A stretch of DNA of 64,000 bases from Raillietiella orientalis. Its lineage: Eukaryota. Location: assembly GCA_036172245.1 (NCBI GenBank), contig JAYWIR010000027.1:2480001-2544000 (forward strand). Reading direction: 5' to 3'. A program made the translations under genes and the position numbers. Positions within the stretch are counted from its first letter, which is position 1. Every line of letters starts with the position of its first letter. The notes beneath the pieces were generated by a model. It did no database searches and was not told where the DNA came from. It saw nothing but the letters and a program-made list of their open reading frames with translations. This document shows positions 9,060 through 56,435 of the stretch, in pieces.

Positions 9060-9205
9060 ACGCCACCATCATCATTACTGTCATCACCGCCATCCTCATC
9101 CTTACTATCATTATCGTTATTGTCATTAGCATCATTATTATTACTATCATCATTAGCATCATCATCTCTATCATTAGCATCGTCGTCATCATCACTATTA
9201 TTATC
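9060..9205. repeat. Degenerate (ATC/ATT)n trinucleotide tract
   Basis: Directly visible. Confidence 0.9.
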
Positions 9206-9224
9206 CATTCAACTTGGTGACTTT

Positions 9225-11410: not shown

Positions 11411-11499
11411 CTCCCCTGGCAGTTGGAAGGGGGGGAGGGCGAGGGTTCTTCTACCATGCATCTGGCAGAGTCCGAGGTTGCCTTCGTCCAATGGCGGCG

Positions 11500-22693: not shown

Positions 22694-22974
22694 TCGGAGA
22701 CGAACAGGGCGGAGGGCGCCCTCCCAAGAGTAAGAGAGGAACAGACTCCTTCCTCCGGAGCATTCCTGGATTCATGGTGTGGTCCCTCCGTGGTCACTCC
22801 CTATTACCTGAAGCATCAAACGTCCCCTCGGATGACGTGGACAGTCTTTAAAGGCTTCGTGAGCCCCCCCCCCCTCCCCCGAAAGGGAGGCTCCTTTCTT
22901 ACGGTTCTTCAGCACTCCTTGAGGGTCAAAAAAAAAAAAAATCTGTAAGGAAGGCAGCGAAAGCAGAACCCCCA

Positions 22975-24081: not shown

Positions 24082-24084
24082 CTT

Positions 24085-24480
24085 GCTGAGGTTGGGCGGC
24101 GGCGAGCCGGTGCCGCGCTGCCATGGGCGCAGCAGATGCGTCCACGGAAGACTCGGAGGGCTGCAGTCCTTCCCGCGCGAGGACGCCTCGCCAGTTCCCC
24201 CCTAGGGCTGTCCTTCGGGTGCAGAAGTCCGACTGCGTCGGAGGCCTCCGCATTCCGACAGTAGGTGTCTTGGGAACGATCGCGGTCTCCCAGCACTCCA
24301 ATCGGCAGTGCCATCGGTAATAGACCCGCCACGAGCAACGCCCACGCGTTTCATGGGGGAAGGGGGTCACTGTGTATCCGGCCAGGTGTTCGGGTCGGCC
24401 TGTTGTTGCACCGGCGCCCACCCTCGTGGGTGAGAGGGAGGCAATCATCGGCGATGACTCCCTTAGGAGGGTCACCGCTA
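24085..24480 (-). mobile_element. LINE APE endonuclease remnant
   Basis: LPIGVLGDRD, DAVGLLHP and FRGRI resemble GDFN / DxWRxxHP / SRIDR. Confidence 0.4.
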
Positions 24481-25439
24481 GCGCCACGCAAGGGGCGCGC
24501 CGCGGTTGGTTTGCAGTGACGAGAGATCCCTCCCGATGCTTTGGAAACGTAACAGCCAGATCCAGGTGTATTTCTCCATTTCTGCATTTGGTGCCCCCCC
24601 CCCTTCCCCTCTTCCCACGAGGCGGATCTCACTGGCCGGTTTCCACCCAGAGTGCCCAGAATCATGCGAGTTCTAGGAGGAAGTCTTGCCCCATTCCTCT
24701 CCATGATTCTCTTTCATCTCTCTCTCTCACTTTTGGCAATAAAAAAAAAAGAGAGAGAGAGATAAAAGGGAATCATGAAGAGGAATGGGGCAAAAGTTGC
24801 AACGAACGCCTCCCAGCGTGACTGGATGTCGCAAGTGGCTTCCGGGGAGGAGACAACTTCCTTTTCCAGGACGAGATCGGACACTAAGGTGGGGCCATCG
24901 TGACGGCCCGCAAGGAGTGCGGTGGCACCGCCGCCAAAAGACTTCGCTAGCCCCACCTTCCCTGCGAGAAAAGCAGTCGGAGTCGCGGTCTTAATTCCCA
25001 ATAGGAAATCCGAGAAACTCACGTTGTGACCGAATGACGTAGTTGACACCGGAGAGCTGCACCCCAGCATCTTTACCCCCCCCCCCCCCTCCGTCCTTCC
25101 ATCTTCGCACACATACACACCATCCCGTTCCTACCCGCCGCACACACATCCTTCCCGCCGGACGCCGGTCCCCGGGAAGCAGCCAGTCCGCCCTCTCCCC
25201 TCTCTCACTTCACCGGAGCTGCCCCCCACCCTCGCGTACTCCTTGCGTGGAAGATTCCCGATTGATTCGCCTCAGGCGACTTCCGCGGAAGCCCTGGTTG
25301 CTTCATGAGAATGAACGACCGGGACGGGACGCACTTTCGGTATCTCGGGGCAGACGGAAGGGCGGTACAGAGGTCCATCAAGCACGGGGGGCACTCCGCC
25401 CCAGTCTTGGGAACCCACACTGCGCTTCCACGTGCATGC

Positions 25440-32942: not shown

Positions 32943-33602
32943 TCACTTTGGTTTGCTAAGAATACTAGGAGGATCACAAAATTGGAATCTAAAAGGTGGC
33001 TTTCTTGGTTCTGGCTTAAACTTTCTCAAAGCTTGTGCCTTTTCAATGATGCTTGTAACATATTTTCGTGCATCAAAATCAACAGCTCCTTTATAAATGT
33101 GTAAAAGTTCTGATTGGAATGCTTGTTCTCGTAAAGCGGACTTTCTCTTATACAGGTTCTCAAAATATACTTTATACTTTTTAAGAAATTTTTTTCTCTT
33201 ATGAGTTTTCATTTTCCTTCTTCTAATCCTGATGAGGCTCTCAGCTTGCTTATGAACTAAGGAATGAGAATTCCGAGCAGGCATCCTTAATACGACAGAT
33301 GTTTCTGGTTCAGTAATTTCAATTCTTCGTGGAACAATGAAATGTACACTTTCAACACCCTGTTTATGGGGCAAGACAATGCGTATCATGCAAGAACTCG
33401 GTAGCTTCAAATCGAACTGTGAATTATTTTCCTGAGTATGTAATCGTGGGCAAACCGGTGCTTTCAGTAAGGAAGGATTACAAACAACTATGTCTGCCGC
33501 ACTGCGGGCAGCAAATTTAGGTATAACGTTCGGTGCCTGAGGTGCACTTCCACTAGTAGTTACTGTTCCATAAGTTCCTAAAACATAACGCTGAATCACC
33601 AT
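32943..33602 (-). CDS. AURKAIP1: Mitochondrial small-subunit ribosomal protein mS38 / Aurora kinase A-interacting protein 1 homologue, single coding exon, 219 aa
   Basis: Intact ORF; C-terminal LIRIRRRKMKTHKRKKFLKK matches the basic mS38/COX24 (DUF1713) motif; N-terminus lacks acidic residues (presequence-like); in-frame stop two codons upstream of the ATG. Confidence 0.85.
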   Translation of the reverse strand: MVIQRYVLGTYGTVTTSGSAPQAPNVIPKFAARSAADIVVCNPSLLKAPVCPRLHTQENNSQFDLKLPSSCMIRIVLPHKQGVESVHFIVPRRIEITEPETSVVLRMPARNSHSLVHKQAESLIRIRRRKMKTHKRKKFLKKYKVYFENLYKRKSALREQAFQSELLHIYKGAVDFDARKYVTSIIEKAQALRKFKPEPRKPPFRFQFCDPPSILSKPK

Positions 33603-36600
33603 TTTTCAAAGATTGATAACTTTATTTCAGAAATGACCATCAATTCCGATTATTTTTCCTTAATTTAGTTTCCACACCGTTACGCCTTGCCTTCTGCTAT
33701 TTGCAAACGGTTCATCCTTTTATAAAAATAAAAGGATTAACTGTTTGAATACGCATGTAATTAAACAAACAATGGCAAACTCAACACACAGTTACAAAAA
33801 TGAACTTACTTCTTAAGCAGTGCCCAATAATTCTTAATAATTGCTGGGGATATTGGGGCATCTTGCTTCACGACACGGGTTGGCAAATTGTCATATTGAA
33901 ATCAGGATAGCCCAGCGTAATTTACCTAGTGCCAGGTGAAAATTGTGCTCTTTTGATAATGTTTCTTTGTTTCTGGAAAACAAATTATCATTCCAATGAT
34001 ACTGTGTATCGCAGAGGAAATCAAAACACAAATGGACATTTTTAGAATCTTTTTGCTTATCAGAGTTCTCCACTTTAGTCTCGAAACATCAACTAAAAGC
34101 ATAGGAACAAAACGCACTAGCTCTGTTGAAATGCATTATTTCTTTTTGTAACAGATGAACATTTTACAAAAGGAATAATGCAATAAAGATGGAGCAGAAA
34201 ATTAGTAGTGAGTGAAGAATTTTGAATTATAAGAATTTTGCAGAATTGTTAGCCAAATCGCAACCGTGATTACGATGTTCGTACTGAAATGTTGCTTTAG
34301 ATGATGCCTGATAATGTATCATTAACAAATACAGCAAAGTATAATCATCAACGACTGATTTTTCTTTGTACATATATGAATGCACATAATAAATATCTGT
34401 CAGTGAATATCACATTGCATTCTCCAAAATGTATGTTCAGTAAATTCTTTTGCAGGTTTACTCTTTTGCGATCTTTTGTGCATGGATACTCAATTTACCT
34501 GGTCATATATCTGCCTGCAGAAGAAAATTTATGCGCTTTTGTTTTACTGAGCGCTATTTTTTCCTCTTTACAAATATCTTAAAGAGAGGAAGTCATCGTT
34601 TTCAGGTGCACTGTTTCCTGGAATAGTGCAATAACACCGAAAACTGTGATTATGACGAAGATCATAGTGGATCGTAAAAAAAATTATAGCACAACTTGGA
34701 AACTTTGCACTGAAAATGCGACTTCGCAAAAGACAATATTTTTCTTAATAGAAGTCGGTATGCTTCTCAGTGGATTTGATCCACTGAGATCCCTGAAGCG
34801 TGACATTTCAGTTTATTGCAAAAGGAAATAAAAGGAATGAGATGCGATGAGAAATATGTAGGCATTGGAAGTCACTGCAACTGGTGGAAATGCTTATTTC
34901 TTCCAGGCTTTACCACCGCAAGCAGTACCCATGTCTTTTTACTAGATGGTCACATGAATTTTAACTCGAATTCCTCTCCTAATGGAAAGAAAACCTGGCA
35001 GAGCTATATTTCCATTGATCTGTCTTTTTTCAGAAAAAAAAATCGTTGTGACGGTGCTTTTCCTTGTCAAACTCAGAAACTTCCGCCTTTCACGTCCTCG
35101 TGCTCGTTTCCTCTAGCGTGCCCCGTGTACTGGTACTTCTTAAGCTGATCCTTGGTCCCGCTCCGACTGCTACCAAATTACTGCTTTTAAAGCATTGTAG
35201 CACATTCGCATGTCGATGGATCATTGTGGGATGCTTTTTTCATTCTTCATATATCCATAACAAAACCATCAGCGTGCCAAGATAAAGGCAACAGGACCAT
35301 GCATCTTTCCGTTGAAATGACTTCCTGCTGTACATTGTCGCGACCGTGGATACGACGAGCTGTTGCAGGACCGTTCCTAAGCATTCGCACTTCTCAAAAC
35401 ACCGCCGATAGGTGCAACAAGGAAGAACAGACAGAACTGCAAGCCGAAGATTTGCTTCCCTCCTCTTTAGCAGCAATCTTATTTTTCATGGAATGCTTTA
35501 CGATCTGTGTGACTCCCAAGTGGTTTTCTAAGCAGAGAACAAATTGCCAATCGACACGATACCAAAACTCATTTTCATCAGAAAACGGTTAGTCAGAAAT
35601 TTGATGGGAGAACTGGAAATGTGGCGGCTCTTTTGAATCTATATGCCTTGGTCAAAGTGTTCCCTACTACATGATTTCCGACAGCAAAAGATTCTTCCAC
35701 TCTGGTGACCAACGACTGATTGCAGAATCTGAAGCGGAGCACGTTTTCAGGAAACGAAATGCACAGCAGTGCAGAGTTGATAGGTTGGCAAAGGAAGAAA
35801 AGATACCAGTGATGAACAAGGCTAAGGAACTGTCTTCTGTCTCAAAGGTCTTTATAAGTTGCAATTGATATTTGAGATTACTAACTCTCAGCTAGGAGAT
35901 AACCGAGGCTACAAATTGGACTGGTAATTCATCTGAGAAAGGACTCATTTGAAAGTTATCGTCCTTCTATTAATGATCAAACGTTAAAGTGGTGTTATTG
36001 GTGTGCTTTTTTCTCTTTATCTTTTCTGATAAAGCTCACCGTTCCAAAGATCAGAAGATTGCTATGACTACCAGTAGAGTACACGAACGTTTTTATGATC
36101 CAATCCAAGAGTTCCTAAATTCAAATCTGCTGCAAGTTTCACCTGCCGGGGATGACAGCAGCCAAATTAAGTATTTCCAGTTAATGAGATGCAGAAAAGT
36201 TAGCAAAATATAATAGGGCTTTATCAGTTGTCTGGCAACATGTCACACCTTTTGATTCGGTGCAGGACGGGAATTGTCGGAATCTCTTGATCTGTCCTGG
36301 TTTGGTCACGCCGTTCGAATAGAAGAACATAACAAAAACAAAAATACATCATCGCTGTTTCTGGATGGATTTTACTAAACATTTTCCAAGGGACCAAACA
36401 TTCAGCTGCTTTTGAGACTTTTATTCCTTATGTCGCGAGTTATGTCTTCGTGCTCCCCACCACTATCCACGTAATCAGCTCTTCGGCTTGAGGTTTTTTT
36501 TTCTAAACTCTTTCACGAATCCCCCAATACTGTGGAGGTGTGTGCACTTCCACAGTATTCTGAAACTCTTCGTTTCTCTGAAAGGAGATGAGCCCAATTT

Positions 36601-37699: not shown

Positions 37700-38750
37700 A
37701 TTTACTTTTTGCCATGAGCGAGGATGTAGGAGCCAAGCGCGGAATAGGTGCGACGTTTTCTGTACGCGCGTAACTGCACGCTCCGGGAGATCCCGGAAGA
37801 GCCCGCGAAGAGTGCATGGGCAAGCAGAACCACCTTCGCAGCCGCGCTGCCCTTCCTTAGGGAACACATGGACAGCAGCCTTATGGCTAGATGGGAGGTT
37901 ACTGTGGAAATTTCCGGAAGGAGAAGAGGACTAGGCGAGTGGTCGACGGACCAGCTCACTGACGCTGCGACCCCGGTTGCTCGACCTCTTGGGCTTTTGC
38001 GCTGGGGCGTGATGCTGGGTATTCCGGAGGAAGAACTGCCATGAACCCCAGTGCTGATGAACACCCGCACCCTCCTCCTAATGTGGCGGGAGTCGACCTT
38101 GATGCTGCTGCACTCCCGTGCAACGTCCCCCAACATCATTGGACACAGGGGGGAGGAGTGAACCCAGACTGTGCAAGGTGAGGGGAGCGGGGATCCCTCC
38201 CCAACATTCTAGTGGACAGTGTTGCCCTTCGGCTCCTTTGGGGACGCTTTGCTGAGACCCTTAGTACTCCCCGGCAAACTCAGGGACCTTTTTAAGCTGC
38301 TCTTCCTGCGCGAAGTCCTCACATCGGCTGCATCTCCAGAAGCACTTTGCCGCCCACGCGGCGGGATCGTGGCTCCATGGAGCAGTCCCAGGGAAAGCCA
38401 AAACGACAGGGACGCCATCTATTTAGCTGTCCTCATCGTGTAGACAGCGCCAAGATGGCCCCATCTGGGAGTCCTGAAACAGGCATCCTTGAGAGGATGC
38501 AGAGGAAGTCCTCCAGCACTCGTTGATCCCTTTCCGGACCCTCCCAATTTTTTGACTGTATGTTTTTGGTTTTATTTTTTTCTTTTTGTTTGTCCCCCCA
38601 CCCCCTCTGCTAGTGAGGCGAACCCGCTGGTCTGCGTGCCCGTTCCGGCAGGTTCCTTCTTGTAGCTATTAGAAACGTGGCAGGATCAAACGTCCTGCCA
38701 CAGACGTGTGTGTTTATTTTATAAATCCCCCGGCGTGACGGGGTGTCAAC
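37700..38750 (+). mobile_element. L1/Tx1-like LINE 3' copy F
   Basis: QLTDAATP...LLRWG; CARxGERGSLPNILVD; terminus ataaatcccccggcgtgacggggtg. Confidence 0.8.
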
Positions 38751-38779
38751 CAGTGTCGCACCCAAAGTCCGTGAGCCAA

Positions 38780-40370: not shown

Positions 40371-41535
40371 GCGCGCGCACACCTAGCGGGGCGAGTTCGA
40401 ACCCGCCGCCAAGTTTTTGCGATGTTGCCAGCGAGAGCAGCAGCAGCAGCCGCGAGCTAAAAATAACGCGCGCGATCTATTTTTGTCTCCGCCGAGTGCG
40501 CCGGTCGCAGAGCCCCGCCGCGAACTACACGCAGCGCTCCTCGTGTCCGAACAAATGGGGGGTCACTCGCTCAGATGTGTCATCCGGAAGTCCCCCCCTC
40601 TTCTCGCAAGCAGCAGGCACGCCCAAGACCGGAATTCTCACCCACCCCCGACGCGCGTCCTGATCGTTTCTCTCGCTCTTGTCAGCCGTTGTTCCGCGCC
40701 AGCCGGAAGACGAGAAGCGTCCGGCGTGCACAGCGAAACTCACCCGCCTCCGGGGCGGCGACGTCCCTGGGGCCTCGCCCCTCACACCGAAGCGCGGCTC
40801 TCTCGGACGGCTCCGACGAGATGCTCTCACCGACTTCGGCCATTTCTCGAGCGGACCCCCCCCCCCTCTCCTCCCCCAGCGTGCGCGGGCAACTATGATC
40901 CAACGGACGTGGAAGACCCGCTCAGCGCGCGCAACTGCTGCGCTGAGTGCCGTCATGCGCCTAGGTGCGCCACCCACTCGCCAACTGAAGAAGCTGCGCG
41001 TGCTGGTCCGCTCGTGGAGCTTCCCCGGCCAAGGCTGCAGATCCGGGTGCAGATCGCCTCGCACGTGGATGGAAAAACTTGCTCCGCAACACTCGCAGCA
41101 GCGGAGTCGCGTTCGTCGCCTGGACGGCTGCTGAAGAAACAGCACCGCCGCAATGATGCCACCACTGCAAAAGGCTTCACGGATATTCGAAACCGTGGTG
41201 CAGATCCAGTCGCCATGGGCTCGGTCCACGCGAAGACCCGCGTCGGAAATTTAGCCGACTGGCGCATCGTCATTCTTCCCCACAGATTCGAGAGCACGTG
41301 TGCAACACTTCCCATGCTCTGCATATCGCATTGCGCAGAGCCGCGACACCAGAATGGCAAATGCGGGCTTACGACTCCTTGCTGGACACGGCTGGCCTTC
41401 TGTCTTAGCGCCAGCAGCGCAGATTGACCGCAGGCAGCTTCTGCTGCGTCCGTTCCACCTGTTAGAGGGATGAATCTCTGCTGTGGTTCTCTTCATGCAT
41501 GTTTGGCATGCTCTCTCCATGACAACGACGTTTGT

Positions 41536-41975
41536 CACACGGATTTGCCGGGGCATTTATTATTAAAATGTATATAAAAATTTTATGATAAAGTCGTTGA
41601 TTTTCATGTCGTGGTAGAGCACTTGGTTCTACCACGCGCGGAAGACTTGCCTTCAACCGGTACGCAGACCGGTGAGCTCCTCTCTGTTGGCAGCGCGGGA
41701 GAGAATTTAAAAAAAAATGAACAAAAAATCAACAAAAAGGGAGGCAAATGTTTTTCGGGGAGGGAAGTGCAGGGATGGGGTCACCGGTCTCCTGGAGTGG
41801 TCCTCTGCAGGGGTCGTCTCAGTGGTCCTCCTTACTGGATGCTGACAAGTGCTGTACGGATGTTCCGGAGTCGGGGCCATCGGGCGGCGTTCTTCACGAA
41901 GATTGCCGCCCAGTGGATGGCACCCCTGCTGTTTTGGTCTCTTTTTGCGCTCCATCTCGTCACGATTCCGCCTAC
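41536..41975 (-). mobile_element. L1/Tx1-like LINE short 3' copy G
   Basis: ORF2 C-terminus, 3' UTR hairpins, aataaatgccccggcaaatccgtgtg terminus. Confidence 0.8.
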
Positions 41976-42529: not shown

Positions 42530-43134
42530 TGTAACCCGAACTGCAGCAGTGCGGCGAAAGGGAGTCTCTGCTCGTGGCTCTGTGTGGCCCTCCGCCCCCT
42601 GTGGGAACGCTTTGCCGCGTTCCTGCGGATCCCTGAGGACAACCACAGGAACCTCCTGGAATGCCTCTTCCTGAGCGACGCCAGCACGCCGGTAGCATCC
42701 TAGCAGCACTTTGCCGCCCACGCGGCGGGATCGTGGCTCCATGGAGCAATCCCAGGGAAAGCCAAAACGACAGGGACGCCATCTATTTAGCTGTCCTCAT
42801 CGTGTAGACAGCGTCAAGATGGCCCCATCTGGGAGTCCTGAAACAGGCATCCTTGAGAGGATGCAGAGGAAGTCCTCCAGCACTCGTTGATCCCTTTCCG
42901 GACCCTCCCAATTTTTTGACTGTACGTTTTTGGTTTTATTTTTTTCTTTTTGTTGGTCCCCCCACCCCCTCTGCTAACGAGGCGAACCCGCTGGTCTGCG
43001 TGCCCGTTCCCGGCAGGTTCCTTCTCGTAGATATAAGTAAGGTGGCAGGATCAAACGTCCTGTCACAGACGTGTATGTTTGTTTTGTAAATAGAGTGAGT
43101 TGGCACCCCGGCATGACCGGGTGCCAACTCACTC
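42530..43134 (+). mobile_element. L1/Tx1-like LINE 3' copy H
   Basis: NCSSAAKGSL..LCVALRPLWERF; 3' about 385 bp nearly identical to copy F; terminal hairpin. Confidence 0.8.
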
Positions 43135-43229
43135 CTTGTACCAACCTCCAAGTAAGTGCCCATTGAACCATCTCTTCCTTCTCCCCTACTGCACTCATTG
43201 AGACAAGCTCTTGTCAAAAGAAAAGTGCG

Positions 43230-43669: not shown

Positions 43670-44240
43670 TCGGGATTGGAAGTCGCGCGGCTGCGGGACT
43701 CCCAATCCCTCGTGGAAGTTCGACGCCGAGCAGAAGGGGGCGCGCCGTGGATTTCGAGTTCCCATCGCGAGATGACGCTCGTTGGCTTCGGACGCGGAGC
43801 CACTGTGGAAGCAGCCGGATGCCCCCGTTGACTGGCCGGGATGGGAAGTTGACTCTTTGGGGTCCTTCCAGGACATCAAGGAGCCCTTCGGGGTTGTTTC
43901 CCTCCGCTTGTGAAAAAGGAGCCTCGCCTTCACGCTAGGGCGACCCTTTATGACGCACCACAGAGCTGGCTGACACCTCCCTGGGGGGGGAGGGGGGGAG
44001 TTGCCTCAGCAGAGTGTTAGGAAATGGGCCACTCCTTCGGGGAACACCCTTCGGAGAGACAGGGAAGCGTCCTTTGGGGGTTCTCTTCCGGGGAAGAGGA
44101 ACCAGAGAGCGGATGCTTTCCGGGTGGTTTCTCTGGAGAAGAAATGAGGACACCCCTCCGGAGGGAACAAGTAAGAGATGATCCCCTTCGCGATTCCCTT
44201 CAGATACAACAAACAGACAAAGGAAGAAGCGAGAGGGACT
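43670..44240 (+). mobile_element. Family 2 copy
   Basis: Core ggatgcccccgttgactggccggga at about 43817; atcaaggagcccttcggggtt shared with 4625. Confidence 0.6.
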
Positions 44241-44264: not shown

Positions 44265-44588
44265 TGCAGATGGGGGCCAGATGACCGCACCTGGGACTTG
44301 TACGGACGGACCTAGGAAACGTCGGCATCTTGGAAAGAATGCAGATTCCAAGACAGTGGTTCCTTTCCGACCCTCTCCAAGATTTTTATTTATTTTTATT
44401 GACTCTTTTTTCTTTTTCCTTTTGTTTTCTCCTGTCTCCCTCCGCTGCCGAGGTGACTCCCGCCGGTCAGCGCACCGGGGACCTGGCAGGTCCGTAGAGA
44501 AATGAAGTGTGGTTGAACCACTTGTCCCACCACAACTTGTGAGTTTCTTTTACATTTTAGGGAACCCCTCGGCGTACCCTGGTGGAAA
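44265..44588 (+). mobile_element. L1/Tx1-like LINE very short 3' copy I
   Basis: ORF2 tail, 3' UTR module and terminus cccctcggcgtaccctggtggaaa. Confidence 0.75.
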
Positions 44589-44589
44589 T

Positions 44590-45485
44590 GAGGAACTTGC
44601 CGCAGGGCTGCCACCCTGAGAGAGGCGAATGGCAGCAGCCCTCCAGCGAGGTGGAGGTTCTCCTTAGAGAACACAGGCAGGAGAAAGAAAAGGAGCCGTT
44701 GGTCCACGGTGCAGCTAACCGACGCTGCGATTCCAAGTGCTCTTCCACGTGGAATTGTGTGCTGGGGCGAGATGCTCGTCATTCTCAGCGAAGACATGAA
44801 TTGGCTCCCGGCAATCAAGAACAGCAGCGCCCTCACCCTGGCGTGGAGGGAGTCGGCATTTCTGCTGCTGAACTGGGGTATCCCGTGCAACGCGGTTCAG
44901 CACCCTTGGACGCTGGGTAGGGCGTGTACGAACAAACCCGGGAGGCTGTGTGCCCAAACTGTTGCAGGTATGAGGAACGGGAGTCTTCCCGCACCTGCAT
45001 GTGGACCGTGTTGCCCTCCACGTTCCTGTGAGAACCCTACGGACCCCGGTTGACAACCTCAGGGACGTTATACAGCTCCTCTTCACGCGGGACGCCCTGC
45101 AGCCAGCCTCAGCTCCAGTGGCTCTTTACTGCATCCGCGGGATTGTGGCGGCCTGGAGCGACGCACAAGGAGGACCTACGAGAGGGACGCCATCGAGGGT
45201 CACTTCGCTTTCTGCGGATGGCAGCAAGATGGCCTTTCTCGGGATGGACCTAGCACCGGCATCCTGGAAAGGATGCAGAGGACTCTCTCCCGAGGGCAGT
45301 AATCCCTTCCCGGTTCTCCATAGTGTTTCTATTTATTTTTCCTTTTGTTTTCCCCTTTCCCTCCGCCGCTGAGTCGCCGGTCCACTGACCGGAGACCCTG
45401 CAGGTCCATGGACAAACGGAGCGACAAATACAATTTGCGAGTTTCTTTTCGATTTTAAGAAACGCCCTGGCGCGTCCGGGTGGAA
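44590..45485 (+). mobile_element. L1/Tx1-like LINE 3' copy J (head-to-tail after copy I)
   Basis: QLTDAAIPSALPRG...LLLNWGIPCNA; terminus gccctggcgcgtccgggtggaaa. Confidence 0.8.
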
Positions 45486-46105
45486 ATCGGAGACGAACAG
45501 GGCGGAGGGCGCCCTCCCAAGAGTAAGAGAGGAACAGACTCCTTCCTCCGGAGCATTCCTGGATTCATGGTGTGGTCCCTCCGTGGTCACTCCCTATTAC
45601 CTGAAGCATCAAACGTCCCCTCGGGTGACGTGGACAGTCTTTAAAGAGCCTTGTGAAGACGGAGCACCTTACATGATTACCACTGAAGGCTGAATTTCTT
45701 TGATGCTTATTTTACTTGATGCAGGTGGATCTGAAGCAGGGTGCCAGGCATTCATGATGCCTGTCTCAAGCGTTGGAACGGCTCTGCAAAGCATGGACCA
45801 TGGCGTTTTGCGGATGCGCCCAGAACGAAGCTTGCCTCTGGAAACCGCCGCACGCCAGCCAGATGTAGTCTTCAGCTGATCACACGGAGCATGCGGACAA
45901 GATAGCTTTGTTCCCGGTATCTGGAGGTGATGGAAATCCCACATGCGCACTCGGGAGTTCTTGCTTCCGCCGTTTGCAGAGAGCAAAGATATGGCACCAA
46001 GAATAGCCGAACCCCTTGGAATTCGAATGCTTCTTCATAATGCTCAAGACAAAGAAACGCCCTATGAACTTACCGTGCACAGTTGAGCCCACTGAGCGAG
46101 ACTGA

Positions 46106-47130
46106 TGATCCATATTTGCCGGTGCATTTATTATAAAAACAATAAAAGTACAGTAAATTTGTCATGTGGTGAAACTGCTGCTTCACCGCGTCCGTCCGAC
46201 TTGCCGGTCACCGGCACGGAGACCGGTGAGGTCCGCTCCGGAGGCAAAGAGAGAGGAAAACCGCAAAAAACAAAAAAGAGAAAATAAAGGAAGGGGGATG
46301 TTTCCCAGAGAGGGGAGGACGGGAAAGGGATCACTATACGCCGGGAGGCGTCTCCTGCATCCTCTCCAGGATGCTGACAAGTGGGGTTCTTGTGTTGCCC
46401 AGGTGAGGCCATTTGCAGGCGGTCTTCAAAAAGATCCGCGCGCAGTGGATGGCGTCTTTGCCATTCTGGCCTCTTCTTGTCGCGTTCCAGTCTTCCACGA
46501 TTCCGCGGATGCGGCAGAGAGCCGCTAGGGACGCGTCTGGTGGCAGCGCGGCACGCACGAAGAGGCGCCAGAAAATGTCCCCGGGACCGCCCACCGGGAT
46601 TATTAGGGCCGATCTCAAAGTGGTCGGAAGGCGGTACAGCCCAGCAGAAGGTGCTGGGAGGTCTCCTTCTTGCTGCACCTCTCGCAAGGGGCATGCAAAC
46701 TTCCCCGTGTCCAATGATGGAGGCGTGCTTTGCATGCCTCCAATGCAACACCCACAACGCCAACTCTTGCCACTCAAGGGGAAGGGTGCCACTGTCCCAA
46801 CAAGCTGGAAGTTACTTCACCTCCTCCGGAGGTACCACGAGCAGCTCGCCTCAGCTCAGAAATCATTTTGGCGGGACACTCGGGGTCATAGCGTCCGTCA
46901 ACTCCCGGGTTGTCCACGCACTTGACAGTTTCTTCCTTCCTGCAATGTGGTAAGACACTTCCCACCTTGCTGGAAGGTCACTGTCCCTTGTTTCCTTCAA
47001 AGAGGGCAGCACTGGGACAAGGGGGTGGACGATGCCATGGGTTCCTCATGATCTCCTTCAGCGGCTGTCGAGCGTGCCTCCCTTCCCGGAGGCAGGCGCA
47101 TTCCGCCTCGCTCGAGCCTTGGCTCTTTCC
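46106..47130 (-). mobile_element. L1/Tx1-like LINE 3' copy K
   Basis: CERCSKKETSQHLL zinc-knuckle region; DIFWRLFVRAALPPDASLAALCRIRGIV; 3' UTR module. Confidence 0.8.
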
Positions 47131-47769
47131 CGGTGCGGAAACTTTGCTCTATGAAGGAAGACACTTTTTTCCTATATATAATAAGACAATTTTTTGGAAA
47201 TTATTTTACAAAAGCTGCCATATTGTGTATACAAAAAAATTAACATTTGTATATAAACAGATGAACGCCTGGACGTGACTGGGTGAAAAATCTCCAGCTC
47301 GTACTCACAAACAATCGGAACCCTAAGGAGATGACTGGAGGAGATTCAGGTAAGTGATGCACACTGTGCCGCTCTGTGGTTGTAGTTTTGTTCGCTCGAA
47401 TGGCAGGATTTTTTGGACTCAACGCGAATTCACCCCACCGCAACCCCGTCCGGGGCGTCCACAGGACTCCCGAAAAAGCGTTCAGAGCGTGGGAGTGGGG
47501 CCTACGAATTGGGTGGCCATATCAAGGCAGCTCAATATTCAGGCGAGATATCAAGGTCGGACCCGCGTAGTCAGTTTGGTTCATCCCTTGGATTTGGGAT
47601 CGGTCGATCTACTTCTCGTTCGGGTGCTGGACAGTGGGCATTTGCCGCACTGCAGAGAATTCATTACCGGCCCTTTGATCACGGGAAGGACAGGAAAATT
47701 TTCGTCGCGTATTCGGGGCTCCTCACGCTCATTGCACGCGCCAATTTCTACTTTCAACGACTGGATTGA

Positions 47770-48870
47770 CACCCGGTTGCGCCGATGCTTTTATTTATAA
47801 AATAAGCATAACAGGACACTTAGTCCAGTCACGTTACAGATATGCACAAAAAGGAGCCTACCGAGAACCGGTGCGCATGTTTTCGCCTCGGTAGCAGAGG
47901 GGGTGGGGAGACAAACAAAAGAAAAAAATAAAACCAAAATATACAGTCAAAAAATTGGGAGGGTCCGGAAAGGGATTAAAGAGTGCTGGAGGACTTCCTC
48001 TGCATCCTCGTAAGGATGCCTGCACGTTCCTGTTTCAGGACTCCCAGGTGGGACCATCTTGATGCTGTCTACACGAGGAGGACAGAGAAATAGATGGCGC
48101 CCCTGTCGTTTTGGCCTCCTCTGGCGTTTCTCCATGCAGCCACGATCCCGCGTAGGCAGCAAAGTGCTTCTAGGATGCTACCGGCGTGCTGGCGTCGCTA
48201 CGAAAAGAACGTGGTCGACTAGTTCCGTCCGTGTCTCGCTCAGGTGGAGCCACCTCGCAGCGGGCCTCAGGAAGATTCCTGACCGGTGCCCAATGGCTAT
48301 CTTATCATCCCGGCCTCTTCTGGCCGCTGTTCAGACAGCCGCGATCCCGGCGAAGGCAGTGGGGAAACAGCGAGGAACGAGACTGGCGGCAAGGCGGCAC
48401 GCTCGATGACCTTGAGTTTCCAAATGTCCCCGGGGTAGCCAACTGGGATTCCAAGGGTCCTCTCCGGACGATCCCAGAATGGACTGGAGGGCAGCACAAC
48501 CTAGAGGCAGATGCAGGAGGGTCTCTTCTTTCCTGCGTCCACACTCCCCCGGTCCAGTGGCGAAGGCGTGCTTTACATTGGGCCATCCCCAGACGCAAGG
48601 TCAGCAGCGCCAGCACCTGCCACCACAGGGGAGGGTGTAGTTGTCCGTGAAGATAACGGGCAGCGCCAGATCTCCTGGAGGGGATTCGAGCAGCCGGACC
48701 CCTGACCTCCTGCAGCGACCAACGACCGTAGACGTCGCGTTGCAGACGGAAGAACTCCACTTCGCTCTCGACGCGGGTCCTCCCCCACATGCCAACGGAC
48801 TCCTAAAGCCAGATAGTATCGTCGCCGGACGATTCCAAAGGGGCCGGAGGGTAAAAGCAGGCGCGAAGGG
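47770..48870 (-). mobile_element. Composite of LINE pieces: 3' copy M (47770-48260), a second zf-RVT piece (48270-48640) and an RT fragment (48650-48870)
   Basis: 3' UTR related to copies F/H; NATSTVV..RSGVR resembles the RT region before QGCPLS. Confidence 0.7.
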
Positions 48871-49199: not shown

Positions 49200-50200
49200 G
49201 AGCTCAGCAGATTTTCTTCGTGCCGTGCTCTGGAAGTTCGACCGCGAGACCACTTCTATTCTTCCCCAGGGCATCTTGTCCACGTCGCGGAGATAACCCC
49301 TTTAGCTACGGTGCTGCCCTTCCTGCGAAAGGCACTCACCAGCTGCCGGACGCCAAAGGGGCAAGTCTCCTGCCGAATCTCAGTCAGGGAGAAGAGGAGA
49401 ACCATGGGAGAACTGGCGGATGCCACGACCCCGAGTGCCCTCCCGCGTGGACTTCAGAGATGGGGCGAGCTGCTCGCCATCCCAATGGATAAGCTGAAGT
49501 GGCCCCCGGTATTAAATGGATCGAGGATTCTGCCCCTTAAGTGGCAAGAGTCGGCGCTGCTGCTGTTGCATTGGGGTCTACCCTGCAACGCACGCCGCTT
49601 CCACTGGACGAGGGGAGCTGTGTGCCAGGTGTGGGGAGCGGGAATCGCTCTCCCACCTTCTTGTTGACTGTGCTGCCCTCCGACCCCTGTGGGAACGGTT
49701 CGGGACGACCTTCGTACTCCCAACAGGCAGCGTGCCCAGAGACATTTTCCGGCTACTCTTCGTTCGGGACGCCCTGCAGCCAGCCGCAGCCGTGGAAGCA
49801 CTTTGCTGCATCCGAGGCATCGTGGCGGCTTGGAGTGATGCCCACGACGAAGGAGATGGCCACTACGAGAGGGACGTCATCCCATATGCTCTTCGCTTCC
49901 TGGTGAGAGCTGCCGGATGGCCCCAGCTGGGCGGAATGCTGATGGACCTCAAGGGCATCCTGCGAAGGATGGGCCCACCTCAAAGTGGACAGTGATCCCT
50001 TCCCCTCCCTCCAAACTTTTTTTTTTTTTTCATATTATTTTATTTTTTCTTTTTGTTTTTTCCCCCATCCCCTTCTACTGCCGAGGAGAGTCACGCCGGG
50101 CTGCGTCCCGGCAGGTCCGGTGTTATTGGCCGTTAGTGGGGCCTGGTACCACGCTCTGCAGAGTTTATTTTAATAAACGCCCCGGGCGTATCCGGGTGGT
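49200..50200 (+). mobile_element. L1/Tx1-like LINE 3' copy P
   Basis: CARCGERESLSHLLVDC intact; aataaacgccccgggcgtatccgggtg terminus. Confidence 0.85.
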
Positions 50201-50421
50201 AACCACGTCTCCCTGTGAACTGTGCAGGTGGGATGCGACCGCTAAATTGTCAAGTGTTTCGAGAGCCGTGAAGGTGGAACCTCCGCGCTCTCCTGCGACA
50301 ATCGTGTGATGGGTCGGCGGTGGCGGGGCAGGACTCGCCTCTCCCGTCTGTCGGGAAGAACTCGCACGAAATCACCGAATCGCCTTCGGGATTCTTCCAT
50401 TGATCTCCCTAGGTGGCTTGT

Positions 50422-51020
50422 CACCCGGATTCTCTGAAACATTCATCATAAAAGTTTATAATAAAGTCGTTATTTTTTTACAATATCGTGGTGGAACATG
50501 TGGTTCTACCACGCGCGAAAGACTCGCCAAAACCGGTACGCAGACCAGTGAGGTCCTCTCCATCGGCGAAGGGGGAGGGAAAATCACAAAAAAAAAAAAC
50601 AAATGAGAGGAAAAAGAGTGAGGAGGGAATGTTTTTTGGGTAGGGTAGGATGGAGGAGGGGATCACTTTTCGCAGTGAGACGTCTTCTGCATCCTGTTTA
50701 GGATGCTGAAAGTTCTGCATTCTTTTGTTGAAGTTCAAGTCATCAGGAAGCTGTCTTCAAGAAGATATGTCCAATGGATGGCATCTCTGCTATTTTGGCC
50801 TCTTTTTGCCACGATTCCGCGTACACAGCAGAAAACTGCTAGAGATGCGGCTGGAGGCAGGGCGTCACTCATGAAGAGTCGCTGCAAAATCTTTTAGGGT
50901 CGTCTACCGGAATTTTTAGGATCAACCAGAGTCAATCCCAGAGGGCTCGGAGGTCGATACAGTCCATTCATAAGTGCGGGAAGGTCTCCTTCTGGCCGCA
51001 CCGATCACAATTGGCATCCA
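50422..51020 (-). mobile_element. L1/Tx1-like LINE 3' copy Q (subfamily similar to A, C, G)
   Basis: NCDRCGQKETFPHL; 3' UTR module; ends ...atccgggtga. Confidence 0.8.
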
Positions 51021-51703
51021 CCCTCCCCCTCAAGTGGCAGGAAACGGCGCTGTTGTTGTTGCACTGGGGTCTTCCCTGCAACGCGCGCCGCCACCACTGG
51101 ACGTTGGGGGACGTGGGACAGAACTGTGCAGTGTGCGGGGAGAAGGAATCCCTCCCCCATCTGTTAGTGGACTGCGCTGCCCTCCGGCCCTTGTGGGAAC
51201 GTTATGCTACGACCCTCCCTATGCCGGTCGGCAGTACCCCCAGAGACGTTGTGAGACTCCTCTTCGTGCGAGACGCCCTGCCACCAGCCTCAACCCTGGC
51301 AGCGCTCTGCTGCCTCCGAGGGATTGTGGCCGCGTGGAGCGCAGCCAACAGAGGAAGCAGCGACAGGGACCCCATCGTACACGCGGGTCGCTAGCTGCGA
51401 ATCGCGATCGGCTGGTCCCATCTGGGAGCTATGCAGAGGGACCTCGAGGGCATCCTGGAAAGGATGGTCTCTTCCTCCAGAGGACAGTGATCCCTTCCCG
51501 GCCCCCCAAATAGTTTCTTTTTGTTATTTCATTTATTTTTCTTTTTGTTTTACTTCCTATCCCCTCCGCTGCCGAGGAGAGTCAAGCCGGTCTGCGAACC
51601 GGCTTCCTGGCAGGTCCCAGGAACTATTGGCCGTAGCGGGGCCTAGTACCGCAGATGTACTGTGTTTTCTTTTAATAAACGCCCCGGCGTGACCGGGTGA
51701 AAA
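51021..51703 (+). mobile_element. L1/Tx1-like LINE 3' copy R (best preserved)
   Basis: Open LPLKWQETALLLLHWGLPCNARR...CAVCGEKESLPHLLVDC (zf-RVT CCHC); aataaacgccccggcgtgaccgggtgaaaa. Confidence 0.88.
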
Positions 51704-52653
51704 CTCCCAAGTGCGCTAGTTGATGTGACGCGTGCTTGGCACTTTTTGCAGTGCTCAGCATGCTTCCAGAGAAGTTCCCACGAGACGCAAAGACTCCTCC
51801 CAGATCCTGCCGTTTCTCTTCGACCTGATGTCACAACTGCTTTTCTCTTTTATCCACTCTCTGGTGTTTACGCTGTGTGCGTCCGGCAGTGCGCCAACCA
51901 GAGATCGATCCAACATTTAGATTTGCTTGTCGGATGGTTTGGTGCTCCCTCGAATGCCGAGGTCTCCCGCGGTGAAACGGTCACAGTACAAGACGTGATA
52001 GAAGGCCACGATATCGTCGTACGAAGTGCTTAGCGGAACCACTGCCAAGAGCAGTACGGTAGCGTAATGCTTTAAAAGCTTCGCTGCCCTGGATACGAAA
52101 TCTTCTTTTCCCTGTTCTAAAGGTGAATTAAGGAAGGAGTGGTTCGTGCCGCAAGCATTTGCTCTTGCGGCCTTTTTTCGCGTGTTGCATCATCCGGCGC
52201 TTGTATCACTGAGATTTCCAACGAGATACCGCTACCTGCAGCTATTTCTGGAAAAGTCGATGTACCAGGACACGTGCCGAGTTCCAGAAAACAGAGACCG
52301 TTCCTTCCTTTGTCGGGATCATACAGAACATCACTTCTTCTGATCGATCCGTAGCCCAGCACCTCATGTACTGTTTCAGCCACGTCTAGTACTACACACA
52401 TTCTGGGATTTGAGCTGGACGTAGACGATCGGTAATGCCATCGGTATGCCTTTGTGATTTAAGGTCGTGAAACCTTAATTTCGGCTCAGCCCAATGGCAC
52501 AGTTGCGGCTCCAGAAACCACGAGGGCCACTGATTTTCTCTCCGGGGGTGTACCTGTCAGTCGATACTTCGCTTCCATAACGCCAATCTTCATCGGCTGG
52601 GAGGCAGCGATCCTTCACTGAGAAGGCGCCTAACCTCGTTCAGTAGAATGTGG

Positions 52654-53245
52654 ATGCCCCTTGCGAGAGATGCAGCAAGAAGGAGACCTCCCAGCACCTT
52701 CTGCTGGGCTGTACCGCCTTCCGACCACTTTGAGATCGGCCCTAATAATCCCGGTGGGCGGTCCCGGGGACATTTTCTGGCGCCTCTTCGTGCGTGCCGC
52801 GCTGCCACCAGACGCGTCCCTAGCGGCTCTCTGCCGCATCCGCGGAATCGTGGAAGACTGGAACGCGACAAGAAGAGGCCAGAATGGCAAAGACGCCATC
52901 CACTGCGCGCGGATCTTTTTGAAGACCGCCTGCAAATGGCCTCACCTGGGCAACACAAGAACCCCACTTGTCAGCATCCTGGAGAGGATGCAGGAGACGC
53001 CTCCCGGCGTATAGTGATCCCTTTCCCGTCCTCCCCTCTCTGGGAAACATCCCCCTTCCTTTATTTTCTCTTTTTTGTTTTTTGCGGTTTTCCTCTCTCT
53101 TTGCCTCCGGAGCGGACCTCACCGGTCTCCGTGCCGGTGACCGGTAAGTCGGACGGACGCGGTGAAGCAGCAGTTTCACCACATGACAAATTTACTGTAC
53201 TTTTATTGTTTTTATAATAAAAGTATAGTAAATCTGGGTGAAAAA
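52654..53245 (+). mobile_element. L1/Tx1-like LINE 3' copy S (inverted near-identical twin of part of K)
   Basis: 568 bp match to the reverse complement of 46127-46694. Confidence 0.85.
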
Positions 53246-53760
53246 CCTTCATAGCGCAACGTGCCGACTAATTCCATCGTTAAAAAAGTTGCATACGTTT
53301 TTCACATCAGATGTAAAGACAGCGGATATCGTGAGGAACGTGCACGGTGGATTTTTGATGGGGAGGATTTTTGATGCTGCTAAGGAGAGATGTTTGTCGT
53401 TCAAAGAGCCACGTTTAGGCAAGCCATCCGGGCGGAGTTATCATTACTCTGAGTAAGGTGGGAGGAGGAACGGTACCTGATAACCAGAGATCAGTTTTAT
53501 CCGCTCTTTACATGAATGCTGCACCAAGGAGACTGCGGTGGAGGAAAACTGGCAAAGGGCAGTCCTTTCTTCGCTACCCGATACCATGGCTGGAATAGAG
53601 GGGAAGAAATCCAGGCATTTCATGTGCAGCAGCAGAACACTTTTCCTTTGATGGCGTTAAAAAGAAAAAAAAAAACAGCCTACATAGAATTACGGATGAA
53701 GCAGAATTCATCGAACACCAAGTGCAGCAAAGCGATAAAAGAGGCATGCAGTGGACGCAC

Positions 53761-54010: not shown

Positions 54011-56435
54011 CTGGGGAATCAGCAAAAAAGATAACGTCAACGAAGTCTGGTTACTAGGAGGATCTCGGGAGTTCACCTCCCCTGGTCAGCATCCTCCATC
54101 TTTTTTCGAGACGTAGCGATACTTCCTGGCTGGGATTCGGCAGCGGTTCCTGATTCCCATCTCCCTCTGCAATACCCCTTTCGGGATATCGATCCCCGGC
54201 GGCAACGCGCATGTGGTGCGCTCAGTGCATGAGGTGCGCACTGCAACGCCTTCAGGGCATCGTTTCCTGATTCCGTAGGTTCCAAGTGAAATCCCTATTG
54301 CCGAGCCGTAGGGGAGGTGCGAAGCAGGTTCCCGACTCGCAACAGGGGGAAGGTGACAGCAAAATCACGGGAGCAGGCTTTTGCATATCGGTCTCGGGAG
54401 AGTCATGAACTTCCTTCCACGGATTCGCGCGCTGACCACTCATTCCTAATGGGGAAGGGGCCAAGTCACGAACGCCTCCTGCCTCTCAATAAAATAGGAT
54501 GCTTGGGGACAAGAAGCGACAGCTGCCCACCGGCGGGGCAGAAGTTCCCTGCCAGCTCCGTTGAGGGAGCGACCGAACTCCCAGACGACTGGCTGGAAGG
54601 TGAGCGAACTGGAGGGCACGCGTTTCGTTCCCTGGCGAAGGAAGGTCCCACCGGTCGAGCGGGCTGTCGAGTGCTCCCAACTCACCTTCTTCCCCGCGAA
54701 ACGCTCGCTGTCCAGCCCCTGAGCGCCAACACCTCAGCGCCCCCCTCGAGCTAAGAGTCACACAGTTTCTTTCCTCTCTGGGTTTTCCAGGGCGACTAGA
54801 GCAGGCACCTCGTCTCCGGGAGAGTGGCCTTGCTTTTCCAGGTGCGGGGCGGAAAGCGCGCCTCCTAAAGGACTGCGGCGGAAACGTAGCGTCTAACGCC
54901 GTCGCCTTCGGTGCTGCTCCGCACCGGGGACGTTGCCCGTGACCTGCCGCGGCGATTCTTCGCAGGTGGCGGTCACTGAAACTCAGTACCTATTTTTACT
55001 CACGGTGAAGTAACCCGGACCTGCAGAATGGCGTCGCGACGACGCGTTGCGTCCTCCGCGCCGTCGTCGCAGCTCGCCGCGACGATGGCGTGCGCTGGGG
55101 TCTTGGGCGCGCAGAGGGCCGAAGGGAGGCGCACGCATGGGGACGGCTACGGGGTGGCCTCGCAGGGAAGGAGAGGTCGGGTCGGAGGCCGCTACCGAGC
55201 CGGAAGGAGGAACTCGAACCAAAGACTCCCCGCCCTCCCTTCCTTCCTTTATCGATGGATTGACCCCTTTTTCCTCGGACGGACCCAAAAAGCGACCTTC
55301 CTAAGGGCAGACACTGCAAAAGACCTGCTGCTGCGGTTCCTCAGGCACAGCGCACTCTCGCGGGCGACGGTGCGTTGCGCCTTCTTCGCCGTCGTCGCCG
55401 ATCGCCATTTGCTGGAGGGTAGGGCGCGGCAGCGAAGGGAGGCGACACGCACACGGCGGTCGCCTCGATGAAGGAGGCCGTGGGGTGGCCTCTCAGGTAA
55501 GGAGAGGTCGTGTCGGAAGCCGCCTCCGGCAGCATCTGGCATCGCCTCTGAGCAGGAAGAAGCGACTCAAACCAAAGACCTCCGTCGTTATTCCCTCTTT
55601 CTTTCTGCCTTTATCTCTTGATTGATACCTTCCTTTCTGCTTCGGACGGCCCCAGTAGACGACCTACCTGTGGGCGAACCCTCCCACGGACTTCGTCTCG
55701 TTGTTTCGGGAGCGCTCCGCCGAATTGTTCTTTATTTCTATGAGATAAACGACCCGGGTCACAGGATGGAAAACTGACTGCAAGGGGGGAACCTCCAGCA
55801 TCCGTCCCTTTTGTCCCTTTTGCTTCCTAGGCAAAGATCCCGTTCCTTCCCTCCGAGAAACGGGGACTTCTTCGTACCCGGTCGCGCCGGGACGTTTACG
55901 TCCAGAAATAAACATTCGAAGACCTTGTCCGGGAAGGGAAGGAATCGGAGTCCAGTGCTGCAGGTCAGCCCATCCACAGAGAGAGGTCAAGGAGGAACAG
56001 GAGTCTCCGTGGAAGAAGAGGAAAGGGAAAGTATTAGAGGATATACTTTCGCACCACGTGCTGGGACTCTGCAGGCGCCCACTGCAGGAAGCCCCCTGTC
56101 CACTGCCTCCTTCGCTGGAGGCCGGCCTCCCGCCACCGTCTCCCTGAGCGACGAGAGGGCTCTCAGCTGGCGATCCCATTTCCGGTAGGTAGGCAACGGC
56201 CTCTCCATGGTGAAGCATCGAGTAGCCCGACCAGTCGAGCTCCTCCATCTGCTCTTCCTCCGTCTCCTCGAACGCCATTCTGCAGGTCCGGGTGGCTGCA
56301 CCGTGAGTAAAAAATAGGTACTGAGCTTCAGCTCCCCCCCATCGTGCCCGCGGTTGGTTCCACGCCGTGGCAAAGTCCTCACGCACCCTCGTGGCACGTG
56401 ATTTGCATCCCCCCACTGGCATTTCCTTTGTCTTT

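Follow-up and report, generated by a model that had tools for sequence, protein, structure and literature searches.

Compensated, probable RNA hairpins in the 3' untranslated region of a truncated, apparently L1-like LINE family in Raillietiella orientalis

A 64,000-nucleotide (nt) stretch of the Raillietiella orientalis genome (GenBank assembly GCA_036172245.1, contig JAYWIR010000027.1, positions 2,480,001 to 2,544,000 of the forward strand; this whole stretch is hereafter the window, and positions are numbered from its first letter) is eukaryotic DNA dense with nested repeats. Among these are 15 copies of one non-LTR (long terminal repeat) retrotransposon family of the long interspersed nuclear element (LINE) type, all truncated at the 5' end. 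A profile built from six 3' ends recovered them with nhmmer at E <= 1.6e-9, together with 7 weak matches; the strong matches lie at 7030, 11200, 22462, 38480, 42844, 44321, 45254, 49950, 51445 and 52974 on the plus strand and at 20087, 41809, 46374, 48022 and 50706 on the minus strand. Three copies are near-identical segmental duplicates (22145-22444 matches 44938-45237 and 38338-38637 matches 42702-43001, both at 98%, and 46127-46697 is an inverted duplicate of 52651-53221 at 99%), which leaves 12 independent copies with an average per-column identity of 53%. The 3' untranslated region (UTR) of this family contains a real, selected structure, most probably of RNA, in which an internal hairpin (H2) is strongly supported, an outer stem (P1) and the hairpin it encloses (H1) are moderately supported, and a terminal hairpin (H3) is conserved without covariation.

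The UTR measures about 210 nt, and the order of its modules is fixed across the 15 copies. The stop codon is followed by GATCCCTTCCC, a T-rich tract of 50-70 nt, CCCCTC, the 5' arm of P1, a purine-rich joiner carrying the 5' arm of a further helix (P2), and H1 (CCGGT-CTGCGT-ACCGG). Next come the 3' arm of P1 (GGCAG or GGCGA) abutting the 3' arm of P2 (GTCC or GTTC), a linker, H2 (consensus GTGGTAGAAC-CAAGT-GTTCTACCAC), an AU-rich linker and AATAAA, and the UTR ends with H3 (GCCCCGG-CAAAT-CCGGGTG) and a tail of the form NNAA(A)C. H1 and H3 with its tail are the best-kept blocks of the UTR (mean pairwise identity 0.70 and 0.62, respectively; flank, 0.36).

In c51, the plus-strand copy in which the structure was originally flagged, the UTR opens with the T-rich (pyrimidine) tract at 51503-51560, which occurs in all copies with variable sequence (identity 0.54). 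P1 (51569-51613) pairs CTGCC at 51569-51573 with GGCAG at 51609-51613 and encloses a 7-bp H1 at 51585-51604 (AGCCGGT-CTGCGA-ACCGGCT), and in this copy alone a competing hairpin at 51604-51623 (TTCCTGG-CAGGTC-CCAGGAA) shares bases with the P1 3' arm. Of H2, this copy keeps a remnant of 4 bp with a 9-nt loop (GCGG...CCGC, 51636-51652) that is unstable when folded alone (z -0.68). AATAAA, a candidate polyadenylation signal, occupies 51674-51679, about 25 nt short of the element's 3' end; H3 follows at 51680-51699 (CGCCCCGG-CGTGA-CCGGGTG, with 5 bp, a bulged C, then a G.U and a C-G pair), and the tail AAAAC at 51700-51704 marks the point where similarity among copies stops, with no poly(A) after it. 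The initial annotation had drawn the structure at 51565-51655, a range that takes in P1, H1 and H2 of c51 and misses AATAAA and H3 (51674-51699). A comparison with Rfam 15, which that annotation had proposed, returned no match at gathering thresholds anywhere in the window, and within 49900-51800 only chance-level matches appeared (E 1.2-9.9, far under gathering scores). Two known kinds of structure were considered and rejected: a tRNA-like origin, for which ARAGORN found nothing, and an ENE-like triple helix involving the U-rich tract, which had no Rfam support and no conserved flanking stem.

The evidence for selection comes chiefly from H2, which in most copies is a hairpin of 10-11 bp. In hand-anchored columns with 13 rows (one of them c42, a near-duplicate of c38 whose removal gives similar results), 101 of 108 H2 cells are canonical pairs (94%), compared to 31-56% when the partner is slid, and 15 double changes keep the pairing versus 1 that breaks it, an outcome reached by 0 of 2000 shuffles. 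The double changes fall at 7 of the 10 pair positions, namely pairs 2-5 in c11, pairs 5 and 8 in the clade of c38, c42 and c48m, pair 4 in c48m alone, pairs 6 and 7 in c53 and pair 2 in c51, which by our reading of the table amounts to about 11 separate events. For example, c11 (11260-11417, plus strand), the most divergent copy, forms H2 from CGGTTGGGAA/TTCCCAACTG (z -3.12), with pairs 2-5 doubly changed relative to the commonest pair and a sixth pair that is also G-C, and c38 (38597-38751, plus strand) carries two double changes in a hairpin with z -6.26. Likewise, GCGG/CCGC at 51636 in c51 and GTGG/CCAC at 50136 in its nearest relative, c50 (50065-50210, plus strand), differ by a compensated change. 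The copy closest to the family consensus, c41m (41528-41703, minus strand), has full P1, P2, H1, H2 (CGTGGTAGA..TCTACCACG) and H3. The H2 arms quoted in the initial annotation were all found as given, at 38677 (GTGGCAGGAT/GTCCTGCCAC), 41611, 46147, 11340, 50136 and 51636.

Two further tests of H2 take account of relatedness and of alignment. When relatedness among copies is preserved, the cognate column takes first or second place among 10 candidates at each position, and mean covariation is 0.55 versus 0.15 for non-cognate columns. When the H2 slot of each copy is folded alone, without any alignment, z is -3.07 or lower in 9 of 12 copies, and only 0-2 of 200 shuffles fold as well; the exceptions are c44 (z -0.24), c51 (as given above) and c50 (z +0.21). 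Aligning 8 of the 13 copies with MAFFT, blind to structure (c51, c50, c22, c11 and c48m are omitted because they carry insertions or deletions), gives a similar picture for the five helices jointly: 80.9% of cells are paired versus 26-43% when slid, and 18 cells are doubly changed versus 10.0 +/- 2.2 in shuffles, a count reached by 0 of 500, with 5 of the 11 H2 pairs changed on both sides. The mean pairwise identity of H2 (0.53) is close to that of the adjoining linker (0.50). Because H2 is as divergent as the linker while its pairing is kept, the pattern is that of a constraint on structure only, and it points to selection on RNA structure in the active lineage. The original description of divergent copies that retain their pairings, and the proposal of a selected RNA element behind them, find support in H2.

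H1 and P1 present a similar pattern in weaker form. For H1, 69 of 84 cells are canonical (21-49% when slid), with 5 double changes keeping and 4 breaking the pairing and 32-41 of 2000 shuffles doing as well. Its loop, CTGCGT, is exact in 8 of 12 copies, and that of c51 (CTGCGA) differs by one letter; its closing pair varies among U-A, G-C, C-G and U.G and its sixth pair between G-C and A-U, while the 5-bp core scarcely varies. The H1 arms previously listed are present at 51585 (AGCCGGT/ACCGGCT, 7 bp), 50095 (GCCGGG/CCCGGC), 22584 (CCGGTC/GACCGG) and 11293 (CCGGC/GTCGG, with one G.U), and also at 41657 and 53121. An outer stem around H1 had likewise been proposed, and P1 gives it modest support: 69 of 91 cells are paired (19-58% when slid), 8 double changes keep the pairing and 3 break it, and 2-3 of 2000 shuffles do as well. 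Its variants include GUUCC/GGAAC in c11, CUACCGAG/CUCGGUAG in c48m and UCGCCGA/UUGGCGA in c50m (50415-50579, minus strand).

The P2 helix is a different case. It had been suggested that a segment inside the loop of the outer stem pairs with sequence just outside it, forming a pseudoknot, and the arms do lie in the crossing order P1a-P2a-H1-P1b-P2b. If P1 and P2 formed together, they would make an H-type pseudoknot around H1, and if they formed in turn, they would be two alternative conformers of a switch. In 6 of 13 rows (c44, c38, c42, c41m, c50m and c07, the last at 7149-7309 on the plus strand), each of the two helices has an uninterrupted run of 4 or more pairs, and in the 8-copy alignment one P2 pair alternates between G-C (4 copies) and A-U (3 copies). 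However, the P2 helix itself does not rise above shuffles: in a 10-copy test, 55 of 80 cells are paired (36-60% when slid), 7 double changes keep and 7 break the pairing, and 1180-1396 of 2000 shuffles are as good. P2 is missing from c51 and c50 and unplaceable in c22, c11 and c48m, and minimum-energy folds contain P1 in some copies and P2 in others. The geometry is also unfavorable, as the 3' arms of P1 and P2 abut and merely 4-8 nt separate their 5' arms. In c50m, with 0 nt between the 3' arms, the 4 nt between the 5' arms must span about 13 stacked bp, which is implausible by standard pseudoknot geometry and suggests that full P1 and full P2 cannot coexist in this copy. Hence, we treat P1 and P2 as alternative outer closures; the pseudoknot is unproven, and a functional pseudoknot or switch seems very unlikely.

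At the 3' end of the element lies H3, which was absent from the initial annotation. It is conserved in sequence, and 66 of 77 of its cells are canonical (26-57% when slid). In 11 of 13 copies, 5-7 nt separate H3 from the point where similarity stops, and an AATAAA-like, A-rich hexamer, with variants, lies directly 5' of H3 in every copy. All 13 copies end in NNAA(A)C/T after GGGTG and then diverge, and none has a poly(A) tail, the longest run of A being 5 or fewer in 13 of 13. A candidate target duplication was found in one of the 13 copies searched, c44 (44432-44589, plus strand, with two mismatches in H2), as a 10-bp direct repeat, GAAATGAGGA, at 44141-44150 and 44585-44594; by our estimate, about 0.5 such matches would be expected by chance over 13 copies. 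If this repeat is a target-site duplication, GGTG would be the last sequence of the c44 element, and what reads as a "tail" would belong to the target, at an A-rich nick site of the L1 type.

Several other observations concern H3. Two elements carry an H3-like hairpin and tail with a stop-region-like motif upstream, one at 47255-47292 on the plus strand (GCCTGG-ACGTGA-CTGGGTG-AAAAAT) and one at 55866-55905 on the minus strand (GTCCCGG-CGCGA-CCGGGTAC); neither has H1 or H2, and no ORF (open reading frame) similarity was detectable upstream of them. They may be deleted or divergent LINE copies, a sister family or non-autonomous partners, and as elements with H3 and tail only they hint that H3 is the minimal tail module. 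In addition, the likeness between the inverted duplicates c46m (46099-46257) and c53 (53091-53252, plus strand) breaks off exactly within H3, at 46127 and 53221, such that c53 retains the H3 3' arm and tail and c46m the H3 5' arm, which places a duplication or conversion boundary at the hairpin.

It should be noted that a number of results weigh against a selected structure and are compatible with the alternative that the UTR merely contains G+C-rich, inherited inverted repeats, whose apparent covariation would stem from hand alignment, relatedness and chance. The sample consists of 12 independent but related copies from one window, so that the shuffle counts are not probabilities and overstate significance. 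Whole-UTR folding gives z <= -2 in 5 of 13 copies and is no different from shuffles in the other 8; by inspection, two of the five (c42 and c53) owe their signal to long palindromes peculiar to those copies. Of the 13 P1-H1 domains, one has z <= -2 and the other 12 are no more stable than shuffles, and when the complete c51 UTR is folded to minimum energy, P1 loses to the hairpin at 51604-51623. The 5' arm of P1 lies 3 nt farther upstream in the c38 clade than in c51, leaving its register unfixed between subfamilies, and P1 is therefore a recurrent outer closure, not a strictly homologous helix. H3, whose position would suit RT (reverse transcriptase) recognition better than that of any other module, hardly varies, like the H1 core: the 13-row pair table contains no covariation in H3 (0 double changes kept, 1 broken), so that its structure rests only on a conserved inverted repeat. 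Some copies have lost modules, with c22 (22560-22696, plus strand) and its duplicate c45 (45353-45490) lacking H2, c48m (47758-47907, minus strand, with a P1 of 8 bp) lacking the H1 5' arm and c51 keeping only 4 bp of H2, losses that may have come before or after insertion.

The alignment itself belongs among these concerns. The 13-copy columns were anchored by hand on conserved loops and flanks, using coordinates only, at a point when the hairpins were already known. MAFFT applied to the H2 slots alone mis-registers c11 and c53, the most informative of the divergent copies, and thus breaks the c11 pairing; RNAalifold on a 13-copy MAFFT alignment recovers H2 and mispairs H1. A covariance model built from 5 copies finds all 15 copies among its 28 matches but handles the H2 of c11, c42, c51 and c50 as insertions, and for this reason its alignment was not used for pair counts. 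Since RNAalifold, MAFFT and the covariance model all mishandle the divergent copies, the 13-copy statistics depend on the anchors. Against an explanation without selection stand the findings that H2 is 94% paired although subfamilies differ at 7 of its 10 pair positions, that each divergent H2 folds alone with z of -3 to -6 and needs no alignment, and that the structure-blind 8-copy alignment still beats both slid and shuffled controls. We therefore regard inherited inverted repeats under no selection as a highly improbable account of the data.

A related question is whether the inverted repeats act, or are maintained, as DNA or complementary DNA (cDNA), for instance through snap-back priming of the second strand or through copying of one arm by template switching. 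Two copies record arm copying at H3. In c42 (42961-43135, plus strand), H3 is lengthened at 43093-43135 into an almost perfectly paired stem of about 18 bp, and the AATAAA region is replaced by the exact reverse complement of the post-hairpin sequence (GAGTGAGTTGGCA / TGCCAACTCACTC), a pattern that resembles template switching or snap-back on DNA. In c20m (19832-20001, minus strand), where H1 has decayed with two mismatches, the original H3 3' arm has been disrupted, and a newly formed hairpin of 6 bp (CACCCT-AGC-AGGGTG, 19836-19850, minus strand) ends at the usual GGGTG. Over the full UTR, moreover, sense and antisense strands fold about equally well. However, both arm-copying events are confined to single copies and to H3, not the covarying H2, and arm copying would erase the G.U pairs that are seen among 11-12 copies, 8 in H2 and 6 in H1. 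The sense strand has more G.U pairs than A/C mismatches (6:1 in H1, 8:5 in H2 and 17:3 in H3, many of the H3 pairs being inherited), and the same G.U positions read on the antisense strand would be mismatches. This excess suggests, without being decisive, that it is the sense RNA that folds. The two arm-copying events keep a DNA-level explanation alive for H3 only, and as a general account of the UTR we give it little credence.

The protein-coding remnant upstream of the UTR indicates what kind of LINE this is. A decayed reading frame precedes each UTR and ends in ...GILERMQ...-TGA, with the motif CX2CX7HX4C in the translations (as compared among copies by tblastn). In c51, the C-terminal remnant of ORF2 spans 51014-51490 on the plus strand; the frame is interrupted by a stop following 51391 and reaches the TGA that ends it in this family at 51488-51490. 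The remnant matches Pfam zf-RVT at 22.8 bits (E 1.5e-4), below the cut-off of 27.5. The fragment profile gave 41 matches at E <= 1e-3 among 1.84 billion proteins. Ten of these were scanned for domains: two proteins of about 1250 amino acids (P0018 and P0038) contain Exo_endo_phos, RVT_1 and zf-RVT, two (P0013 and P0005) are fragments with zf-RVT, one of 87 amino acids (P0001, E 3e-26) has no assigned family, and four long ankyrin proteins were set aside as spurious. The c51 fragment aligns with residues 1106-1171 of P0018 (1253 amino acids), the homologous C-terminal place, at 36% identity over 67 amino acids, and the best match of P0018 among solved structures is human LINE-1 ORF2p (3e-96), compared to 4e-26 for R2 proteins. 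A word-based search for longer proteins with the c51 ORF tail found none. Neither RVT_1 nor Exo_endo_phos was detected in the 109 window ORFs of at least 150 amino acids or through tblastn with the L1-like relatives, and every copy in the window is thus strongly 5'-truncated.

These similarities support, indirectly, the reading that the remnant comes from an L1-like ORF2, of which it represents the C-terminal CCHC domain. A point against placing the family in this clade is that the assignment uses a C-terminal similarity of about 70-100 amino acids, the window containing no reverse transcriptase (RT) part for phylogeny. Of the earlier designation "L1/Tx1-like", the L1-like half thus gains indirect support from P0018, and the Tx1 half does not extend to target specificity, as the 3' flanks of 12 copies have nothing in common past the tail where a shared insertion target, a Tx1 hallmark, would appear. 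Two local arrangements touch on the reading frame. Near 50990-51030, within 50777-51290, c50m (minus strand) and c51 (plus strand) join head to head, and the plus-strand ORF at 50843-51394 begins as c50m antisense, so that its first 50 residues or so are not c51 protein. A further ORF-tail copy lies at 24040-24650 on the plus strand; it has a stop codon near 24078 and is then interrupted, with a possible continuation at about 24590-24640 (plus strand) that holds an H1 without its loop (CACTGG-CCGGTTT).

Taking structure and coding remnant together, we lean towards the view that the UTR is a "stringent-type" 3' tail recognized by the element's own RT, with the sense RNA folding into P1/H1, H2 and H3 modules. 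In this model, the transcript would be cut about 25 nt past AAUAAA, just 3' of H3, giving an RNA with a defined 3' end. The ORF2 protein of the element would bind the folded tail in cis, with H3 at the very end and H1 and H2 serving as additional specificity or scaffold elements, and target-primed reverse transcription at the nicked target would begin from this defined end and not from a poly(A) tail. The copies would then lack poly(A) because ORF2p binds the tail and starts reverse transcription there. The repeat family, its module order, the compensatory changes and the lack of poly(A) are directly observed; we infer from the G.U excess that the structure forms in RNA, and the 3'-end processing, the protein partner and the role in retrotransposition are likewise inferred.

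The position of AATAAA-like hexamers directly before H3, with the element end about 25 nt later, would equally suit hairpins that serve the element's mRNA and not its reverse transcription, by defining or enhancing 3'-end cleavage, by shielding a transcript poor in poly(A), or devoid of it, from exonucleases, or by aiding export or translation. The structure lies on the sense strand, as judged by the G.U excess, and all 13 copies lack poly(A), both of which are in keeping with such a role. On the other hand, 3'-end processing leaves copies without poly(A) unexplained unless the RT, too, has a fixed starting point, and H1 and H2 lie 60-130 nt upstream of the element end. A purely mRNA-based function therefore appears rather unlikely, but it could operate at the same time as RT recognition, the explanation that we favor.

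Beyond the window, pattern scans for additional copies found none in metagenome contigs and none in genome contigs, and two matches in viral contigs proved on inspection to be unrelated phage DNA. Among sequencing runs, one DNA run contained a fraction of 0.26 of the sampled words and no RNA run was listed; at 80% likeness the DNA run yielded 65 short contigs (listed pieces of 89-234 nt), whose number and length were insufficient to contribute linked variation or a 3' end. The sole ordinary host gene recognized in the window is a single-exon ORF at 32946-33605 (minus strand), which matches COX24_C (mitochondrial ribosomal protein mS38), lies in an AT-rich island of 34-41% G+C and has mostly arthropod clusters as its nearest relatives in the Atlas. 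Imperfect triplet arrays rich in CAT, CAC and ATT occur at 5338-5500 and 9064-9217 on the plus strand, 3.6 kb apart and 61-72% identical.

Stringent template recognition is known from L2, CR1, RTE, R1 and R2 elements, and the template choice of a LINE RT decides which RNAs are mobilized, be they its own RNA, those of partner SINEs (short interspersed nuclear elements) or cellular mRNAs. The L1 clade comprises the textbook "relaxed" users of poly(A), in which well-supported structured tails are rare and, in the literature surveyed, limited to plants and a green alga. If the structure described here functions as proposed, this family could be an animal L1-clade LINE with stringent, structure-based recognition, in which a multi-hairpin UTR and a terminal hairpin flush with its 3' end replace poly(A) as the handle for ORF2p and P1 and P2 possibly act as a switch or pseudoknot; we put this forward tentatively, with more doubt than conviction. 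An animal case of this kind would support an ancestral stringent L1 and a dependence on poly(A) that has arisen several times. The family would then provide a second, animal test case for the stringent-to-relaxed hypothesis, with H1, H2 and H3 as defined RNAs for reporter and binding assays. In annotation, the family's 3' end can be recognized by its module order together with the terminal hairpin GCCCCGG-N5-CCGGGTG. In the literature that we searched, which did not include Repbase and Dfam, no animal L1/Tx1-type family is described as having a tail of this kind, and if the structure is ordinary for the clade in those databases, the present finding becomes the correct description of a known feature.

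In comparison with known systems, close parallels are stringent LINEs of the L2, R2 and R1 types, which need a 3' stem-loop and for which recognition is established (PMC4176376). Eel UnaL2, zebrafish ZfL2-1/2, R2Bm and SART1 share with the present family a stem-loop at or near the 3' end, compensatory changes in the stem and independence from a long poly(A). These elements depend on their 3' tail, to which the ORF2/RT protein binds (PMC4176376). They fall into the L2/CR1, R2 and R1 clades, with short TGTAA-type tandem repeats at the end of many of them; here the ORF tail is L1-like, three to four helices extend over about 150 nt, and the tail is NNAAAC without a repeat. The Tx1 group resembles our family in its C-terminal CX2CX7HX4C zf-RVT-type motif and its L1-clade relatives. 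The Tx group, however, has been characterized as target-specific (PMC3747384), and the 3' flanks of our 12 copies are without a common target. Human L1 shares its architecture of APE, RT and C-terminal cysteine-rich domain with P0018, the nearest full-length relative. A conserved 3' UTR stem-loop has reportedly been proposed for human L1 and Alu as well. Mammalian L1 copies end in poly(A), on which the RT primes, whereas 0 of 13 copies do so here.

Structural precedents within the L1 clade come from plants and algae, and they correct the novelty implied by the initial annotation, since structured, compensated 3' hairpins in L1-clade LINEs are already known from a monocot lineage, along with the tail of Chlamydomonas L1-1_CR (PMC3472496). 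Ohshima described a monocot L1 lineage with a conserved 3' hairpin of about 45 nt that has compensatory mutations and is common to maize and sorghum SINEs, and a shared 3' tail in L1-1_CR (PMC3472496). These cases have been read as evidence that an L1-clade RT can recognize a specific tail (PMC3472496, PMC3747384). Like the present, apparently L1-like family, monocot lineage 1a (LINE1-1_ZM) and L1-1_CR, both L1-clade elements, have a conserved 3' end, the monocot hairpin showing compensatory mutations and conserved loop bases. They carry a single terminal hairpin of about 45-50 nt common to partner SINEs, and L1-1_CR ends in poly(A). The R. orientalis family, by contrast, has an arthropod-like host, several hairpins and at most candidate SINE partners, and its covariation resides in the internal H2 and not in the terminal hairpin.

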